Shown piece after piece: positions 20,716 to 26,237 of a DNA stretch of 47,954 nt (positions are counted from its first letter, which is position 1; each line of letters starts with the position of its first letter). Made by a program: the position numbers and the translations under genes. The notes under the pieces were generated by a model. It did not search any database and was not told where the DNA came from. It saw only the letters and a program-made list of their open reading frames with translations. Source of the DNA: Acutalibacteraceae bacterium (GTDB taxonomy: Bacteria; Bacillota; Clostridia; Oscillospirales; Acutalibacteraceae); contig JAZONB010000033.1 of NCBI GenBank assembly GCA_045654305.1, forward strand, positions 1-47,954, written 5' to 3'.

Positions 20716-21888
20716 ATGGATATAAGACGGGAATCTTTGAAAAAACATTACGAATGGGGCGGAAAAATTGAGGTAATTTCGCGTGTACAGGTTAATACGC
20801 GTGAGGATTTATCCTTGGCGTATACACCCGGTGTTGCCGAGCCTTGTCTTGAAATAAATAAGGATGTAAACAAGTCATATGATTTAACACGCCGCTCAAA
20901 TTTAGTCGCTGTTGTGACAGACGGTACAGCGGTACTCGGTCTTGGTGATATTGGTCCTGAGGCAGGTATGCCCGTAATGGAGGGTAAATGTGCATTATTT
21001 AAAGAGTTTGCCGATGTTGATGCATTTCCGCTGTGTATAAAATCTAAAGATGTAGATGAAATTGTCCGCACAATTTATCTGCTGTCAGGTAGCTTTGGCG
21101 GAATAAATCTTGAGGATATTTCAGCTCCTCGTTGTTTTGAAATTGAGAAAAAACTTAAAGAAATATGCGATATTCCGATTTTTCACGATGACCAACACGG
21201 TACAGCGATTGTTGTGGCTGCCGCGCTCATAAATGCCTTAAAGCTTGTTAAAAAGCAGATAGGGGATATTAAGGTTGTTATTAACGGTGCAGGCTCTGCT
21301 GGTATAGCAATAGGCAAGCACCTTATGAATATCGGTGTCAAAAATCTTATTTTTTGTGATAGATTTGGTATTATACATAAGGGCGACAGTAACAATAATC
21401 CCGCTCAAGAGGAAATTGCAAGTGTTACTAATACCCAAAATAAAACAGGAAACCTGGCTGATGCATTAGTCGGCGCTGATGTATTTATTGGTGTTTCTGC
21501 GCCAAACCTTGTTGATGAAGCAATGGTGAAATCAATGGCAAAAGATGCGATACTTTTCCCGATGGCTAACCCTACACCCGAAATTATGCCCAACATTGCT
21601 AAAAAAGCGGGAGCAAGGGTTGTTGGTACCGGGCGTTCTGATTTCCCGAATCAAATTAACAATGTTCTTGCTTTCCCCGGTATTTTCCGTGGCGCGCTTG
21701 ATTGCCGTGCAAAGTGCATAAATGAGGAAATGAAAGTCGCTACCTCCTATGCATTGGCTTCACTTATTCCGGACGATGAAATCACCGAGGAAAATATTAT
21801 AGCAACAGCCCTTGATAAAAGGGTTGCAAAGGTTGTTGCCGAGGCTGTTATAAAAACAGCTAAGGAAACAGGGGTTGCACGTATTTAA
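20716..21888 (+). CDS. NAD(P)-dependent malic enzyme
   Basis: [48 protein letters not shown]. Length is 390 aa. Confidence 0.92.
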
Positions 21889-22023
21889 TTCAGTTATACA
21901 ACAAATAACACCATAAATTACACCTGCGACAGTACCGTACACAATAACCGATCCTGCGATTTTGAACATATTGGCACCTACACCTAAAACGAAGCCCTCT
22001 GCTTGTGTAAACTTAGCAGCCAT
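21889..22023 (-). pseudogene. Orphan spoVAC 3'-end fragment (copy a)
   Basis: It translates to MAAKFTQAEGFVLGVGANMFKIAGSVIVYGTVAGVIYGVICC, matching only the last 45 or so residues of SpoVAC. There is no upstream gene body. The native stop is lost and the fragment abuts the malic-enzyme stop. Confidence 0.8.
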
Positions 22024-22038
22024 TAATTTGTAAAAACA

Positions 22039-22067
22039 TTTACATTTAAACGGCGCTGTGATATAAT
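22039..22067 (+). promoter_or_regulatory. Promoter of the FAD-oxidoreductase gene
   Basis: TTTACA at 22039-22044, a 17-nt spacer, and an extended -10 TGATATAAT at 22059-22067. Confidence 0.5.
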
Positions 22068-22102
22068 ATATTTATATTAGCCAAATTGAAAGGTAATAGC
22101 AT

Positions 22103-23383
22103 ATGCAACAAATTAACTATTCTAAGTCAATTCCTGTAAAAAAGCAGTACGATGTTATCGTTTGCGGTGGTGGTGTTGCGGGTGTTGCAGCGGCAGTCAG
22201 CGCAGCAAAAAACGGTTTGTCCACCTTACTTCTTGAAAAAAGCAATATTCTTGGCGGTCTTGGAACATTGGGACTTATCAATCTTTTTGTTCCAATGTGT
22301 AACGGTCGCGGCAAGCAAATCATTTTCGGTCTTGCTGAAAAATGGCTTCGTATGAGTGCAACGCTTGGATGGGATACTATCCCAAATGAGTGGAAAAATG
22401 GGGAGCCAAATGAACCAACCAATGTAAGATATATTCAACGTTATTCCCCAGCTATTTTTGCCTATCAGTTGACCGAAGAACTAAAAGAAAGTGGTGCGGA
22501 CATTCTTTTTGATTGCATGGCTGTTGATCCAATTATGGATGGTAATATTTGTACCGGTGTCATTACCGAAAGCAAAGGCGGTACATCGTTTTATCCTTGC
22601 CGTGTTTTAATCGACACCACAGGTGATTGCGATGTGTTGCGCCGCGGTGGAATTCCTACTGTCAGCGGCGAAAATTTCTTCACTTTTTCTGCAAAGATGG
22701 TTACACTGGACAGCTGCAAACAAGCCATTGAATCTAATGATATTCGCAATATATACAAAAGCATAAGCGGTGGCAAGGTCAACCTGTTTGGCGATAATCA
22801 ACCAGATGACGTTCCCCGTTGGTCAGGACTTTCGGCAGAAGAAGTTACTGACTACATCGTACGCAATCACTTACTGATCCTAAAAGAGTTAAAAAATACC
22901 GACAGAACAACCCGTGAAATTGTAACCACTCCCGGTATGCCTCAATTTCGCACCACTGCCCACATAAAAGGCGATTATTCGCTCAAAGTTGTAGATGCTT
23001 ACCGTCACTTTGATGATTCGGTATGTGCGATCAACGACTTTGAACATCGTGACCATCTGTTTGAGGTGCCGCTACGTGCATTAACAAGAAAAGATTTCCC
23101 TAACATTATCACTGCAGGCAGAAGTGCTGACGGAACGGGTTACGGCTGGGATCTTTTGCGTGTGATACCACCTGCGATTCTCACTGGTCAAGCGGCAGGT
23201 GAAGCAGCTTGTCTTGCTATTAAAACTAATGTCGCTATTGCGAATGTGGATATACGTGCTTTACAAGCAAAGCTTGAACAAGAAAACGTAATGATTCATT
23301 TCCCCGATTCCTACATACCCGAAGATAAAACCGTAATTATCCATGGAAAAAACTCTGCCGAAATCGAAGGCGGGCATATGTAA
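22103..23383 (+). CDS. FAD-dependent oxidoreductase (FAD_oxidored/GidA-like fold)
   Basis: N-terminal dinucleotide-binding motif YDVIVCGGGVAGVAAAVSAAKNG...LLEK. Length is 426 aa. Confidence 0.8.
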   Translation: MQQINYSKSIPVKKQYDVIVCGGGVAGVAAAVSAAKNGLSTLLLEKSNILGGLGTLGLINLFVPMCNGRGKQIIFGLAEKWLRMSATLGWDTIPNEWKNGEPNEPTNVRYIQRYSPAIFAYQLTEELKESGADILFDCMAVDPIMDGNICTGVITESKGGTSFYPCRVLIDTTGDCDVLRRGGIPTVSGENFFTFSAKMVTLDSCKQAIESNDIRNIYKSISGGKVNLFGDNQPDDVPRWSGLSAEEVTDYIVRNHLLILKELKNTDRTTREIVTTPGMPQFRTTAHIKGDYSLKVVDAYRHFDDSVCAINDFEHRDHLFEVPLRALTRKDFPNIITAGRSADGTGYGWDLLRVIPPAILTGQAAGEAACLAIKTNVAIANVDIRALQAKLEQENVMIHFPDSYIPEDKTVIIHGKNSAEIEGGHM

Positions 23384-23385
23384 TT

Positions 23386-23419
23386 AAAAAGGCTTAACCA
23401 AATAGGTCAAGCCTTTTTA
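23386..23419 (+). terminator. Rho-independent terminator
   Basis: aaaaggcttaacc aaat aggtcaagccttttt. Confidence 0.75.
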
Positions 23420-23575
23420 TATCATCTGAATTATCCAACAAATAACCCCATAAATCACACCTGCAACAGTGCCATAGACAATAACAGGACCTGCGATTGT
23501 GAACATCTTTGCGCCAAGACCTAAAACCCAGCCTTCTGCTTGTGGTCAAGTAGGACCCATTACTTCGTGTTCCAT
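23417..23575 (-). pseudogene. Orphan spoVAC 3'-end fragment (copy b)
   Basis: It translates to MEHEVMGPT*PQAEGWVLGLGAKMFTIAGPVIVYGTVAGVIYGVICWIIQMI*. There is an in-frame TGA at 23546-23548 and no upstream gene body. Confidence 0.8.
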
Positions 23576-23583
23576 TATAACCT

Positions 23584-23618
23584 AAAAAAACTGTCCATCC
23601 ATTAAGATAGACAGTTTT
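23584..23618 (-). terminator. Rho-independent terminator of the XRE gene
   Basis: Stem aaaactgtc/gacagtttt followed by a T-run on the minus strand. Confidence 0.7.
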
Positions 23619-23841
23619 ATTTATAATGCGGCTTTGAATCGTTAGTCAAACCTAAAATATAATCAGTAGAGGTTTTGTACAACTTAGCAAGACGAATCAA
23701 GACATCCGTGGGCAAATCCCTTAGACCACGCTCATAACGACTGTACTGCGGTTGCTTCATATCTAAATAATCTGCTATCTGTTGTTGCGACAAATCACGA
23801 TCTTCCCTTAAATCTTTTAATCTTGAATAATAATTATCCAT
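23617..23841 (-). CDS. XRE-family helix-turn-helix transcriptional regulator
   Basis: Start placed at MDNYYSRLKDLREDRDLSQQQIADYLDMKQPQYSRYERG. The HTH_3 pattern ends in TDYILGLT. Length is 74 aa. Confidence 0.85.
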   Translation of the reverse strand: MDNYYSRLKDLREDRDLSQQQIADYLDMKQPQYSRYERGLRDLPTDVLIRLAKLYKTSTDYILGLTNDSKPHYK

Positions 23842-23871
23842 TTCAAAACCAACCTTAATAACCATTTGGTA

Positions 23872-23927
23872 TTGACATCTTAACATGCATATGATAATAT
23901 ATATTCATTTAATAACTATACGGTTAT
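23872..23927 (+). promoter_or_regulatory. Promoter and candidate operator for the divergent membrane-protein gene
   Basis: TTGACA at 23872-23877, a 17-nt spacer, and TGaTAATAT (-10 at 23895-23900). The palindrome ATAAC-N6-GTTAT lies at 23912-27, and ACCA-TT-TGGT at 23861-23870. Confidence 0.45.
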
Positions 23928-23955
23928 AAAACAAATATATAAGGTGGTATTGTTT

Positions 23956-24492
23956 ATGGATAACGAAACTTGGTTTATTTTCCCAATTAGTGGAACTCTT
24001 ATAGGTATTGTAGTTTTATTACCTATACTTTGTATTTTAGTCGGTGCAGATAGTGCATTCAATTTTATTTATGAAAATTATACTGTGTTTTTTTCGATTT
24101 TTTCTATAATATCCGTAATTTTAATATTAATCCCTTTGATAGGTGGAATTCACTTGACAAGTATTCTATCATTTCCGGCGGGTGCTATTTGTTCTTCTCA
24201 AATGCTTTATATGTTTCATTTTGGATTGAACGCTATTGGTAATATTAATGATTATGGATTTGCACTTATTGGTAGGACTTTATTATTTATCATTTGGCTA
24301 ATTTATATGTTGATAAATATAATATTAACATTTGGTTCCATGGGTATTGGTGCATTTTTTTCATTCGGATATAAATCTATAAAAAATTCAACAGCAGATA
24401 CTGGTGAACTATATTCTAATTTAGGTTTATCGGTTGGTATTAGTACATTGTTTGGCGTAATTGGATGGATTATTAATTGGTTTTTTTTATAA
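23956..24492 (+). CDS. Hypothetical multi-pass membrane protein
   Basis: Start at ATG 23956 behind AAGGTGG. It is about 178 aa with 5-6 hydrophobic helices and is very AT-rich. I recognise no family. Confidence 0.6.
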   Translation: MDNETWFIFPISGTLIGIVVLLPILCILVGADSAFNFIYENYTVFFSIFSIISVILILIPLIGGIHLTSILSFPAGAICSSQMLYMFHFGLNAIGNINDYGFALIGRTLLFIIWLIYMLINIILTFGSMGIGAFFSFGYKSIKNSTADTGELYSNLGLSVGISTLFGVIGWIINWFFL

Positions 24493-24533
24493 TTTAAAAT
24501 CATTTAATAAACATAAGAAAGGATGAAAAACAC

Positions 24534-24953
24534 ATGAGCATTTATGACGAAATAGAAGCCGAAAAACTTCGCCTACAACAAGAACAGCGGTTAAAAAATC
24601 AAAAAAGTAAAATAGCGTTTGAAGAATCAGAAAAAATTATACCTGAAATTGTAAGTCAAATTAAAAACAGAGCAATTTATCGTGCTGCTACTAATTCTGG
24701 TCCTATATATAGACGTGGACTATTAGGTGGTGCGAAATACATTAAAATAACATATAAACTTTCTCAAGATGACGAAGGTGAAAAATTAAAAATGTATGTG
24801 GCATTGCACAAAGTCAAAAACAATAGCAAAATATACAAAAAATTGACGGCTGCCATTAATGCCGCAGGCTTCTGCAACACAAATGTATCATACTACGAAC
24901 CACGTCATTATTTTTATATCAGCACAGAATTCAATTTACCAAAATTAGGATAA
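24534..24953 (+). CDS. Hypothetical protein, 139 aa
   Basis: RBS AAAGGA. The N-terminus is charged and coiled-coil-like. I recognise no family. Confidence 0.55.
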   Translation: MSIYDEIEAEKLRLQQEQRLKNQKSKIAFEESEKIIPEIVSQIKNRAIYRAATNSGPIYRRGLLGGAKYIKITYKLSQDDEGEKLKMYVALHKVKNNSKIYKKLTAAINAAGFCNTNVSYYEPRHYFYISTEFNLPKLG

Positions 24954-24970
24954 TTTATATATTTAACATT

Positions 24971-25414
24971 TTACAATAATGTTATTATCCAATAAACAAC
25001 GCCATAAATCACACTCGCAACCGTGCCGTATAAAATGACGGGCCCTGCGATGGTGAATATCTTCGCACCAACGCCAAGTATAAAGCCCTCGCTTTTAAAC
25101 TCGATAGCAGGGGAGACAACTGCATTTGCAAATCCCGTAATCGGCACCAATGTACCCGCTCCCGCATGTTTTGCAATTTTGTCAAAAAGTTTAAGTCCAG
25201 TTAAAAGTGCGGCGATAAAAATCAGTGTTACGGGCACCGCCATTTTCACGGTTTTTTCGTCAAAACCGAACCACTTGTAAAGCTCCATAAACAGTTGACC
25301 TATCACACAGATAAGTCCGCCTATAACAAAGGCAGATATAAAATCCTTGATTTTTGGCGATGGGGGAGAAAGTTTTTTCACAACTTTATCATATTCCTTA
25401 TTAGTAAAACCCAC
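24971..25414 (-). CDS. spoVAC: Stage V sporulation protein AC (SpoVAC)
   Basis: Motifs: FVIGGLICVIGQ, AGAGTLVPITGFANAV, SEGFILGVGAKIFTIAGPVILYG. I moved the start to GTG 25414, 8 nt after AAGGAG; the track's start at 25423 overlaps the RBS. Confidence 0.88.
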   Translation of the reverse strand: MGFTNKEYDKVVKKLSPPSPKIKDFISAFVIGGLICVIGQLFMELYKWFGFDEKTVKMAVPVTLIFIAALLTGLKLFDKIAKHAGAGTLVPITGFANAVVSPAIEFKSEGFILGVGAKIFTIAGPVILYGTVASVIYGVVYWIITLL

Positions 25415-25463
25415 TAAAATCACTCCTTTTAGAGTAGTTTTAGTGGGTTTTTAAGTTTTATTC

Positions 25464-26237
25464 TTAAATTTTTATACTAATTTCGCCTGATGATAAATAT
25501 TCCTGTGTTTTGTCAGCATATTCAACCAACAGTCTAAAATCATCATCCATTGAAATTACAGAAGCATTTTTACTGATATTGTTTTTTATTACATTAACAT
25601 TTTTGCCTATAACAAAATTTCTTTTTTTGTAATCGGCCAAAAAGTTTTTTTGCAAAAGGTTTTTATAAAATTTAAAGAAATTATTTAATACTAAAGCTGT
25701 AAGCTTTGCTTTTAAAGATAAATCAAAATTTTCAAAAACGCTTCCTGCAATATCTTTAATTTCATCATCAAATCCGTTTTCAGGAGTAAATGCATTGATG
25801 CCTATTCCCAAAATTATATATTCAAAATTTTGGTTTTTAGGATTAATGCACCCTTCGGTCAGAATACCGCAAACCTTTTTACCGTCTATCAGAACATCAT
25901 TCACCCATTTGATTTGTGATTTCTTTTGAGTGAGTTCGTCGCAAGCATTACAGATGGCAACAGCGGCGGCAGTAGTAATTAAGGTGGCGTCAAAACCGCC
26001 AAAATCTGGTTTTAAAAGTATACTCATATAAATACCGCTATTTTCTGGAGAGTGAAATTTGCGGTCAAATCTGCCTCTGCCGTGAGTCTGATTATCTGCA
26101 ATAATAACCAAGCCCTCTTTTTGGGATTCTGCTTTTTCTTTCAAAACAGAATTTGTTGAGGATAGGGTAGAGTAAGATTCTATATTTATATTGTCAAATG
26201 ATATATTGTCACAAATAGATTTAATATAATTTTCCAA
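25464..26237 (-). CDS. birA: Biotin--[acetyl-CoA-carboxylase] ligase, class I (no N-terminal HTH)
   Basis: The motif GRGRFDRKFHSPENSGIYMSILL, and KWVNDVLIDGKKVCGIL. TTG start. Length is 257 aa. Confidence 0.88.
   Translation of the reverse strand: MENYIKSICDNISFDNINIESYSTLSSTNSVLKEKAESQKEGLVIIADNQTHGRGRFDRKFHSPENSGIYMSILLKPDFGGFDATLITTAAAVAICNACDELTQKKSQIKWVNDVLIDGKKVCGILTEGCINPKNQNFEYIILGIGINAFTPENGFDDEIKDIAGSVFENFDLSLKAKLTALVLNNFFKFYKNLLQKNFLADYKKRNFVIGKNVNVIKNNISKNASVISMDDDFRLLVEYADKTQEYLSSGEISIKI

Follow-up and report, generated by a model that had tools for sequence, protein, structure and literature searches.

Tandem recombinase-less cassettes at the 3' end of spoVAC in Acutalibacteraceae and a candidate serine-recombinase helper

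Three spoVAC gene ends and two cassettes in the window

The sequence considered here is a stretch of 47,954 nucleotides from an Acutalibacteraceae bacterium (GenBank assembly GCA_045654305.1, contig JAZONB010000033.1), the whole of which will be referred to as the window, and its main subject is the sporulation gene spoVAC, which is followed in this stretch by two displaced copies of its own 3' end (orphans) with unrelated genes between them. A preliminary description, made from the sequence alone, had recognised three diverged spoVAC ends and had interpreted the two intervals between them as the footprint of two integrations into the 3' end of the gene, each of which brought a replacement gene end. 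The three ends and the codon at which they begin are as follows.

24971..25423, minus strand: intact spoVAC, target gene of the array (open reading frame, ORF; Pfam PF03862, SpoVAC_SpoVAEB, E=6e-44, residues 28-143)
25088..25090, minus strand: Glu109 codon (GAG), putative crossover point and attB-like core, from junction mapping
24971..25090, minus strand: resident 3' end, codons 109-147 and stop (71-74% identity to both orphans)
23417..23536, minus strand: orphan copy 1, codons 109-147 and stop (tblastn match 23420-23542, E=2e-13)
21889..21999, minus strand: orphan copy 2, the distal one (tblastn match 21886-22005, E=9e-11)

The spoVAC gene is a complete ORF of 147-150 amino acids (aa) with full-length Pfam coverage, its start codon being uncertain between the GTG at 25423 and that at 25414. 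The Glu109 codon splits it into a host part upstream and an exchangeable gene end from this codon on, and the first bases of the corresponding codons in the three copies are found, on the minus strand, at 25090, 23536, and 21999. Both orphans aligned in tblastn searches to SpoVAC residues 107-147 (approximately the last 39 codons). In ungapped comparisons over 111 nt counted from the Glu109 codon, the resident end was 73.9% identical to orphan 1 and 71.2% identical to orphan 2, and the two orphans were 80.2% identical to each other, in contrast to a chance identity of 26.6% +/- 4.4% for random 111-mers of the window. These values and the tblastn matches bear out the presence of three related ends, and also the earlier estimate that the orphans are about four-fifths identical mutually and less similar to the resident copy. 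Two details noted previously were likewise seen: a TGA is present just upstream of orphan 1, near its 5' edge (T-stop-PQAEG...), where this copy keeps its own stop codon at 23417-23419, and orphan 2 is truncated at its junction with the malic-enzyme gene (20716-21888, plus strand; stop 21886-21888), its final codons and stop being absent. The differences between the copies are concentrated at third codon positions (19 of 29 for resident/orphan 1, 21 of 32 for resident/orphan 2, and 16 of 22 for orphan 1/orphan 2), and hence the copies have diverged as coding sequence in different lineages and are not local pseudogene duplicates, in agreement with the initial view that they are not recent local duplications.

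The residues ...VAGVIYGVIC... are common to the two orphans of the window and are found in no other array copy listed, pointing either to gene conversion among the copies of this genome or to a same-species donor. A dif/Xer-like site after the resident stop codon was also considered, and it was dropped because the orphans have no such sequence. DNA identity to the closest relatives did not separate native from foreign copies, as all of the copies are 70-86% alike. The upstream neighbour of spoVAC in the window is birA. No match for SpoVAD was detected anywhere in the 48 kb, and spoVAC is followed here by neither spoVAD nor spoVAE.

Immediately upstream of each orphan, a short segment of non-spoVAC sequence is present, which we will refer to as the P arm. 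Together with a spoVAC end and the genes in between, it delimits the two cassettes of the window, whose features are listed below (HTH, helix-turn-helix).

23537..25090, minus strand: cassette 1, 1554 bp, consisting of spoVAC end, cargo, and P arm
24534-24953, plus strand: cassette 1 ORF of 139 aa (no Pfam, NCBIfam, or PADLOC match)
23944-24492, plus strand: cassette 1 ORF of 182 aa, hydrophobic-looking (no Pfam, NCBIfam, or PADLOC match)
23617-23886, minus strand: cassette 1 XRE-type HTH gene (HTH_3, E=5.5e-15)
23587-23618, minus strand: cassette 1 terminator of the HTH gene
23537..23566, minus strand: cassette 1 P arm, type A, ...AGTAATGGGTCCTACTTGACCACAAGCA (non-spoVAC sequence)
22000..23536, minus strand: cassette 2, 1537 bp, of the typical single-gene format
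23388..23416: hairpin AAAGGCTTGACC...GGTTAAGCCTTT between the orphan 1 stop and the convergent cargo stop
22103-23383, plus strand: cassette 2 cargo, FAD-dependent oxidoreductase, antisense to spoVAC (PF12831, E=4e-53)
22032..22069, plus strand: conserved cassette promoter region (5 mismatches to the 38-nt consensus of 32 of the 43 cassettes surveyed below)
22000..22030, minus strand: cassette 2 P arm, type-C-like and slightly degenerate, CAAATTAATGGCTGCTAAGTTTACACAAGCA

The predicted promoter of cassette 2, TTTACA-17-TATAAT at 22039-22067 with an extended -10 TG, matches at 11 of 12 positions and is the best match of the region, and the hairpin at 23388-23416 is likely a bidirectional terminator that is part of a conserved cassette backbone. 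The initial proposal that each module has its own promoter and terminator therefore holds in full for the second interval; in the first, it holds for the terminator of the HTH gene. The right end of cassette 1, consisting of HTH gene, terminator, and P arm, is also present in the metagenome contig L154 (88% aa identity), and among the proteins of the window's cassette 1 the PADLOC defence models identified only a generic HTH. It had further been stated that neither interval contains a recombinase, and this was upheld: no recombinase is encoded there as judged by Pfam or NCBIfam, and tblastn with the three large serine recombinases (LSRs) described below was blank across the 48-kb window. An Rfam scan of positions 21500-25700 gave nothing near the gathering score, hence the conserved arm corresponds to no known RNA.

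Recurrence and anatomy of the cassettes in related loci

A scan of one genome per species identified 80 loci with close relatives of the window's SpoVAC (63-84% aa identity), nearly all of them in gut and rumen metagenome-assembled genomes from Acutalibacteraceae or other Oscillospirales. With the window included, the survey covers 81 loci and about 1 Mb, and individual loci and contigs are designated by L numbers. Exact-protein matches to the window's SpoVAC, malic enzyme, and FAD oxidoreductase were not found, hence no genome of the same species was among those compared. A total of 43 orphan ends were detected in 27 of the 81 loci, and all of these are located downstream of spoVAC, on the same strand, and start at residue 107-109. 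Arrays, with 1-4 orphans each, were present in 23 of the 60 loci for which at least 1.5 kb of DNA is available downstream of spoVAC; the largest are those of L015 (four orphans) and of L020, L046, L049, and L065 (three each). The closest relative with shared upstream synteny (birA and a CBS/DUF21 gene), L001, has a different cassette at the same place.

Polymorphism among relatives, which the preliminary description had proposed as the means to distinguish insertion from an ancient fixed duplication, is most clearly seen in L047 and L049. The spoVAC 5' parts of these two loci are 97.5% identical and their terminal orphan and flank are held in common; despite this, their arrays are completely different, consisting of two versus three unrelated cassettes. 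An ancient local duplication of the gene end that reached fixation in the lineage, and whose copies were separated by the insertion of unrelated genes, could account for direct repeats on one strand, but it is refuted by such polymorphism in close relatives and by the array survey. The preponderance of third-codon-position differences and the presence of a foreign arm before each copy also speak against it, and we consider its likelihood to be negligible.

The intervals between copies (n=43) range from 0.5 to 4.5 kb with a median of about 1.2 kb. In 33 of the 43 cassettes the cargo is a single ORF antisense to spoVAC, and overall 52 ORFs are oriented antisense versus 6 sense. The cargo is diverse, with 63 ORFs forming 53 protein clusters, and a Pfam scan of 20 representative proteins from the 43 cassettes indicated mostly metabolic or regulatory functions: GH2, GH32/43, a rhamnosidase, a sialate-esterase-like SASA protein, a serine dehydratase, an aminotransferase, an M20 peptidase, GFO/IDH/MocA and NmrA-like oxidoreductases, an EamA transporter, and AraC and LysR regulators. 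Recombinase domains were found in none of these 20 proteins.

The most constant part of the cassettes is the P arm, a conserved segment of about 30-45 nt that was observed immediately upstream of every orphan. It occurs in three related types, given here up to the junction (arrow) with the spoVAC end:

Type A: ...TAATGGGTCCTACTTGACCACAAGCA↓GAGGG
Type B: ...ACTGTGTCCTATATTGACAGCAGCA↓GAGGG
Type C: ...GGGTCCTAAGTTGACACAAGCA↓GAGGG

Within a type, the P-arm positions are at least 90% conserved, whereas the third codon positions of the adjoining copy vary freely. Across the 27 arrays, the types are concordant within an array in 13 of 23 pairs, above the chance level (permutation p=0.026), possibly reflecting a specificity of the recombinase type in each host. 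Before the P arm, 32 of the 43 orphans have an antisense promoter, leader, and ribosome-binding site (TTTACA-17-TATAAT...AAAGTGAGGTG...ATG). Of the 32 occurrences of the promoter motif in the 81 loci, 31 are 57-75 nt upstream of an orphan; no orphan was detected after the remaining one (L056). Additionally, many copies in other genomes are followed after their stop codon by the hairpin also seen behind orphan 1 (reading 'RKRLDQ...' if translated), and the median distances are 37 nt from the stop of the copy to the stop of the cargo and about 90 nt from the cargo start to the junction. The typical cassette can thus be described as one ORF within a standard backbone of about 250 nt.

The presence of arrays is also related to the gene that follows. 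None of the 13 loci with spoVAD directly after spoVAC has an array, in contrast to 23 of the 47 other loci (Fisher p=0.0009, a value not corrected for phylogeny). Such a pattern would be understandable if cassettes with terminators can be tolerated only at a spoVAC that ends its transcript. In L013 (8445-11615), about 3 kb separates spoVAC from spoVAD and neither an orphan copy nor a P arm is detectable; this spacer may be either another kind of insertion or the site of eroded scars. A screen of the 81 loci for tyrosine and serine recombinases, extending 8 kb around spoVAC and, being motif-based, not exhaustive, gave six tyrosine-motif matches, of which the two downstream of spoVAC are false (a YitT protein in L070 and a spurious ORF in L077) and the four upstream (2.7-7.4 kb away) were not examined.

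Junction, recombinase-bearing element, and proposed mechanism

Cassettes that are common to two genomes provide a means to locate the junction. In four such pairs (L005/L129, L001/L011, L020/L049, and L001/L047) the sequences are 93-99% identical through cargo and P arm, after which identity falls to 33-79%, and beyond the copy they are unrelated; the drop starts 2-12 nt past ...AGCA↓GA. On the other side, identity between L047 and L049 breaks at the Glu109 codon. Some of these pairs are from hosts that are themselves quite divergent: cargo and P arm of the first cassettes of L020 and L049 are 92-94% identical and the host spoVAC 5' parts 61%, and the cassettes of L001 and L047 are 95% identical with host spoVAC 5' parts at 67%. 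As judged from these comparisons, the cassettes move between distant hosts as units of transfer, and the contrasting arrays of L047 and L049 similarly indicate that arrays turn over quickly. The orphan reading frame is intact in 36 of the 43 copies; within multi-cassette arrays this applies to 10 of 10 proximal orphans versus 6 of 10 distal ones, which fits insertion beside the gene and ageing toward the far end.

A candidate for the enzyme responsible was found outside the surveyed arrays. The type-A arm pattern matched the IMG/VR contig L081, which encodes three tandem LSRs of 550, 566, and 535 aa, and in L081-L089 this trio is followed about 90 nt later by a P arm and then by a spoVAC end. 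The last 24 nt of the cassette 1 P arm of the window recur exactly as the right end of this recombinase-bearing element in L081/L082. In L083-L089, all three LSRs have the domains PF00239 (Resolvase) and PF07508 (Recombinase), with PF13408 (Zn-ribbon) in two of them, and the trio is located at the right end of an element that also encodes DUF6870, HTH_16, sigma-70 region 4, DUF3854, and a RecD2-like helicase; with this content it is an integrative and probably conjugative or mobilizable element. The last LSR has 3549 homologues at E<=1e-30. When metagenomes were scanned with a 27-nt degenerate P-arm pattern, at least 120 stretches matched, and nearly all of the matches listed have a spoVAC end 16 nt past the start of the pattern. 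Among the 120 listed, LSR homologues are present upstream of the P arm in 34, the remainder being cassettes without an LSR; where these LSR-bearing loci are long enough, all three LSR genes are in tandem and the last ends just before the arm. The arms of such elements were of type A, type B, or an A-like variant, and in L083 the element precedes at least three ordinary cassettes within one array. In L114, L118, L135, and L137 the displaced spoVAC end is directly followed by spoVAD, and thus the element is also present inside canonical spoVAC-spoVAD(-spoVAE) operons. In the same four contigs the whole element separates spoVAD from the promoter of the operon. Many of the trio-carrying contigs among the LSR homologues listed (P0001-P0120) are 5.3-5.9 kb in length, seemingly due to assembly breaks at the repeated spoVAC end and upstream of DUF6870; breaks at both ends of the trio are as expected for a conserved module that is shared by variable elements. 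The window region had no blastn match in phage genomes, and tblastn of the LSR and SpoVAC proteins against phages returned only unannotated faecal virome contigs.

The ends of these elements show the same junction as the cassettes. One element end, with at least 98% identity across 150 nt, adjoins no fewer than 13 different spoVAC ends, which range from AT-rich to GC-rich, and a second element type is joined to three more among the matches listed. Variation always begins at the third base of the Glu codon (...ACAAGCA↓GA(G/A)GG). The use of one fixed crossover, a trait of LSRs, is thus observed at 16 host ends and in the four cassette pairs, all of which read ...AGCA↓GA, and we infer GA to be the central dinucleotide. 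The same junction across so many host ends argues strongly for conservative site-specific recombination at a single position, and the evidence is likewise strong that the cassettes carry the att half-site of the LSR element itself. Two joints of a different kind were also noted: in L154 (2830-3000) a normal P arm and GAGGG(CTTT) are joined to non-spoVAC DNA, followed by a promoter and an unrelated gene, and in L083 (14950-15020) a P arm and GAGGG(CTTT) run straight into the terminator-like sequence AAAAAGGCTTG. In these cases the copy may have been deleted, or the insertion may have occurred at a secondary site.

The question of whether homologous recombination by itself could have produced the arrays, through transformation or conjugation followed by Campbell-style integration via the approximately 120-160 bp of spoVAC homology, can be addressed from these junctions. 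Chimeric copies do exist (in the terminal orphan of L047, element-like sequence gives way to native sequence after about 30 nt), and the residues AGVIYGVIC are common to orphans 1 and 2 of the window. However, the homology available is just 70-85%, independent junctions coincide to the nucleotide, and the non-homologous P arm is at least 90% conserved, although under such a process it would not be selected. This makes an origin by homologous recombination only very unlikely. The array members are, with considerable confidence, site-specifically inserted non-autonomous cassettes, and the proposal of two integrations at the spoVAC 3' end, each with a replacement end, receives support from the recurrence of the arrays, the fixed start codon of the orphans, the shared junction, and the comparison of L047 and L049.

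Our preferred interpretation, to which we assign a probability of roughly two in three, is that spoVAC arrays are tandem recombinase-less cassettes at one attachment site, upon which the LSR trio acts in trans. The region downstream of spoVAC in the window would then be a two-cassette array resulting from repeated site-specific integration at the GA of the Glu109 codon (25088-25090). The circular form of a cassette would have an attP consisting of the P arm (about 30-45 nt) and its own spoVAC codons 109-147, stop codon, and terminator hairpin, with its cargo, mostly a single gene equipped with the standard promoter and ribosome-binding site (as predicted for cassette 2), transcribed away from the site. 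Recombination would install the copy from the cassette as the new gene end and push the old end downstream, behind the P arm. As the cassette copy becomes the gene end, spoVAC would stay intact, and as the rebuilt gene end would be a target again, cassettes could stack, with the newest next to the gene. Applied to the window, the resident 3' end would have been delivered by cassette 1, the newest insertion; orphan 1 would, under this model, be the gene end that belongs to cassette 2 and was pushed aside by the arrival of cassette 1; and orphan 2 is probably the oldest end and the ancestral native one. The recombinase would be supplied from outside the cassettes, for which the best candidate is the LSR trio of the integrative element that shares their P arm and junction nucleotide; this trio is probably the recombinase of the cassettes. 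The presence of the LSR element would allow cassettes to integrate and perhaps also to be excised or carried along, and their later loss may occur through excision or through homologous recombination of the direct repeats, with chimeric copies as a result.

Of the three explanations offered initially (decayed islands, mobilisation in trans, and an unrecognised accretion mechanism), mobilisation in trans is the one best supported, since a triple-LSR element has both the arm and the spoVAC junction nucleotide of the cassettes. Decay, in its fuller form, would make the cassettes dead remnants of large recombinase elements from which most genes were deleted, leaving immobile cargo between att scars. 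An LSR element does insert at the spoVAC site, some distal orphans, including orphan 2 of the window, are decayed, and att-flanked remnants are described as an outcome for integrative conjugative elements (PMC12084326). Yet tblastn with the genes of the large element revealed no remnant, of the LSRs or otherwise, in the 43 cassettes or within 8 kb of spoVAC in the 81 loci, except for an unrelated LSR (22% identity) 5-6 kb downstream in L066 and L071. Moreover, it is the last LSR gene that adjoins the P arm in the element, whereas in 32 of the 43 cassettes it is a promoter and ribosome-binding site; the cassettes are compact, with spacers of 37 nt and about 90 nt; near-identical cassettes are found in hosts whose spoVAC is 61-67% identical and break precisely at the junction; and close relatives have wholly different arrays. 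With promoter and att backbone conserved in this manner, decay is disfavoured and we regard it as improbable. A further alternative, that of a dedicated integron-like system whose own unlinked chromosomal recombinase would capture and shuffle cassettes, the large element merely using the same site, seems somewhat less probable again. It would be in keeping with the format of the arrays (mostly single-ORF cassettes of 0.5-1.6 kb, a conserved site unit, up to four cassettes, and diverse cargo) and with the motif screen, in which no recombinase was linked to the arrays. Against it, no candidate enzyme was seen, and a second enzyme is not needed when the P arm of the cassettes is the end sequence of the LSR element, with the same junction nucleotide.

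Several observations weigh against action of the LSR trio in trans on such cassettes, or at least against its simplest form. The helper LSR was never seen in the same genome as a cassette-only array, as judged from the 48 kb of the window and from 8 kb around spoVAC in each of the 80 related loci, and L083, in which LSR element and cassettes occur together, is a metagenome contig. Circular cassette contigs, as identified by terminal overlap, were absent among the 120 metagenome matches listed. Classical LSRs recombine only attP with attB, hence repeated insertion requires that the rebuilt gene end act as attB. Half-sites of about 20-25 bp with imperfect dyad symmetry are typical of LSR elements; here the conserved P arm extends over about 30-45 nt, no clear dyad symmetry was seen around the junction, and the centres detected in a scan of the attB/attP consensus were weak (7-9 of 14 matches). 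For the LSR element, no left end could be identified: it is beyond the 10-kb flanks, and no conserved left-end module is present downstream of spoVAC in loci without orphans; that this element also carries a replacement gene end is therefore a presumption. Some sequences also do not conform to a single exchange. The terminal orphans of L047 (10366-10400) and L049 (12499-12530) differ for the first approximately 30 nt and are nearly identical thereafter, which is best explained by a chimera in L047 that arose from homologous recombination between repeats during cassette loss. Likewise, cargoes that are 92-95% identical bear unrelated left copies and terminators (L020:6509-6621/L049:8432-8532; L001:8682/L047:9787), and their homology sets in no more than about 11 nt from the cargo stop, so that a simple one-site model is insufficient and there are hints that ORFs are exchangeable within the backbone. 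These misfits would be explained by homologous deletions between the repeats in combination with sporadic illegitimate events.

A more far-reaching possibility, which we put forward tentatively and consider rather unlikely, is that the arrays are an integron-like gene-capture platform run by serine recombinases, in which a backbone of about 250 nt is fitted with single ORFs, at nearly constant distances, by a cassette-making process. The backbone would in this case comprise an outward promoter, a ribosome-binding site, an attP arm, a replacement gene end, and a bidirectional terminator. With the spoVAC end as the right half-site, integration would regenerate the target and every orphan would stay attP-like. 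The three LSRs could divide among them the host-left, element-left, and shared-right half-sites, and thereby stack and release cassettes without a directionality factor.

Significance and comparison with known systems

If the trans-acting LSR model is correct, a family of gut and rumen Clostridia keeps an expandable gene rack at the end of a sporulation gene, with glycoside hydrolases, esterases, amino-acid enzymes, and regulators as the cargo at stake. Tandem cassettes that borrow a serine recombinase, so far represented by the staphylococcal cassette chromosome (SCC), would then extend to anaerobic spore-formers in a more compact and standardised-looking form. The constant backbone around unrelated ORFs raises a question familiar from integrons, namely how cassettes are made, and it is tractable here because each junction is easy to read. 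The joining of one element end to at least 13 divergent spoVAC sequences also points to a broad-host-range attB/attP pair, and the cassette, as a natural minimal 'vector', could serve the engineering of genetically intractable Clostridia.

Our literature search found no paper linking spoVAC with integrative elements and serine recombinases. The main text of a survey of LSR targets does not mention spoVA, and a paper on the Faecalibacterium mobilome is likewise without it. Serine-recombinase elements at other sporulation genes of Firmicutes are described, viz. skin in sigK and SPbeta in spsM (PMC6957869). There the gene is split and becomes whole again only upon developmental excision in the mother cell, whereas spoVAC is intact with the cassettes in place; the arrays are therefore not intervening elements of the skin type. 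In streptococcal integrative and conjugative elements (ICEs) of the Tn5252/Tn1549 type, serine integrase triplets disrupt mutT, traG, and hsdM and leave repeats of 2-8 bp (PMC4701971). The element described here resembles them in its three tandem serine integrases at one end, its orientation relative to the target gene, and its site-specific insertion within a gene, but insertion at spoVAC restores the reading frame and creates a repeat of about 120 nt, and satellite cassettes are not reported for those ICEs. Membership among LSR elements as such, as judged by recombinase domains, applies only to the helper element, the window cassettes having no such domains.

Integrons are similar in that their cassettes are compact, mostly single-ORF, and diverse, in having a conserved site unit, with the newest cassette probably beside the insertion point, and in that the origin of the cassettes is unexplained. 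They differ in several respects. No adjacent IntI tyrosine recombinase was found here in the motif screen, the neighbour in the window being birA. There is no attC hairpin architecture, the unit between ORFs being a gene-end copy and P arm in which no Rfam or other structured element was detected. Lastly, integron cassettes are promoterless, whereas each cassette here has its own predicted promoter, is antisense to the platform gene, and rebuilds the end of a protein gene.

Accretion at the 3' end of a gene is also characteristic of the ICESt1/ICESt3 family, for which the target is fda. Cis-mobilizable elements (CIMEs) are att-flanked elements without recombination or transfer genes, and an incoming element can join the flanking att site to form mobile tandem composites, as outlined in PMC12084326. 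The spoVAC cassettes are likewise att-flanked and lack recombination and conjugation genes. However, CIMEs are described as deletion derivatives of ICEs or of integrative and mobilizable elements, whereas tblastn with the genes of the LSR element revealed no remnants in the cassettes, which also have other sequence beside the P arm. CIMEs further use tyrosine integrases, whereas the recombinases here are of the serine type and the cassettes have in common a standard backbone of purpose-like appearance.

The closest parallels are with SCC/SCCmec at rlmH/orfX, where cassettes without ccr are described as being mobilised by the recombinases of a neighbouring element (PMC11470126). Both systems have multiple LSRs per element and insert at a 3' end without inactivating the gene, and in both there is tandem accumulation between direct repeats of the gene end, recombinase-less cassettes included, as is the case in the window. 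The differences concern the target (spoVAC) and hosts (Clostridia), the repeat (about 120 nt of diverged coding sequence versus a short core), and the cargo (mostly single-gene cassettes of about 1.2 kb with a shared backbone versus multi-gene islands of 5-60 kb); mobilisation in trans has been shown in staphylococci and is proposed here from comparative data. The LSRs, moreover, score 33-123 bits with the NCBIfam CcrA/B/C models, far below the cut-offs of 700-900, and the system thus works like SCC without being a member of it. The suggestion of an unrecognised accretion mechanism is accordingly correct only in part, as the logic of accretion is known from SCC and CIMEs, whereas cassettes of a standardised single-gene format are not. 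The principle itself, in which elements accrete in tandem at the end of a gene and passengers borrow a recombinase, is known; its embodiment in a spoVAC-specific triple-LSR system, with standardised, promoter-equipped, mostly single-gene cassettes across a bacterial family, appears to be a previously undescribed one.

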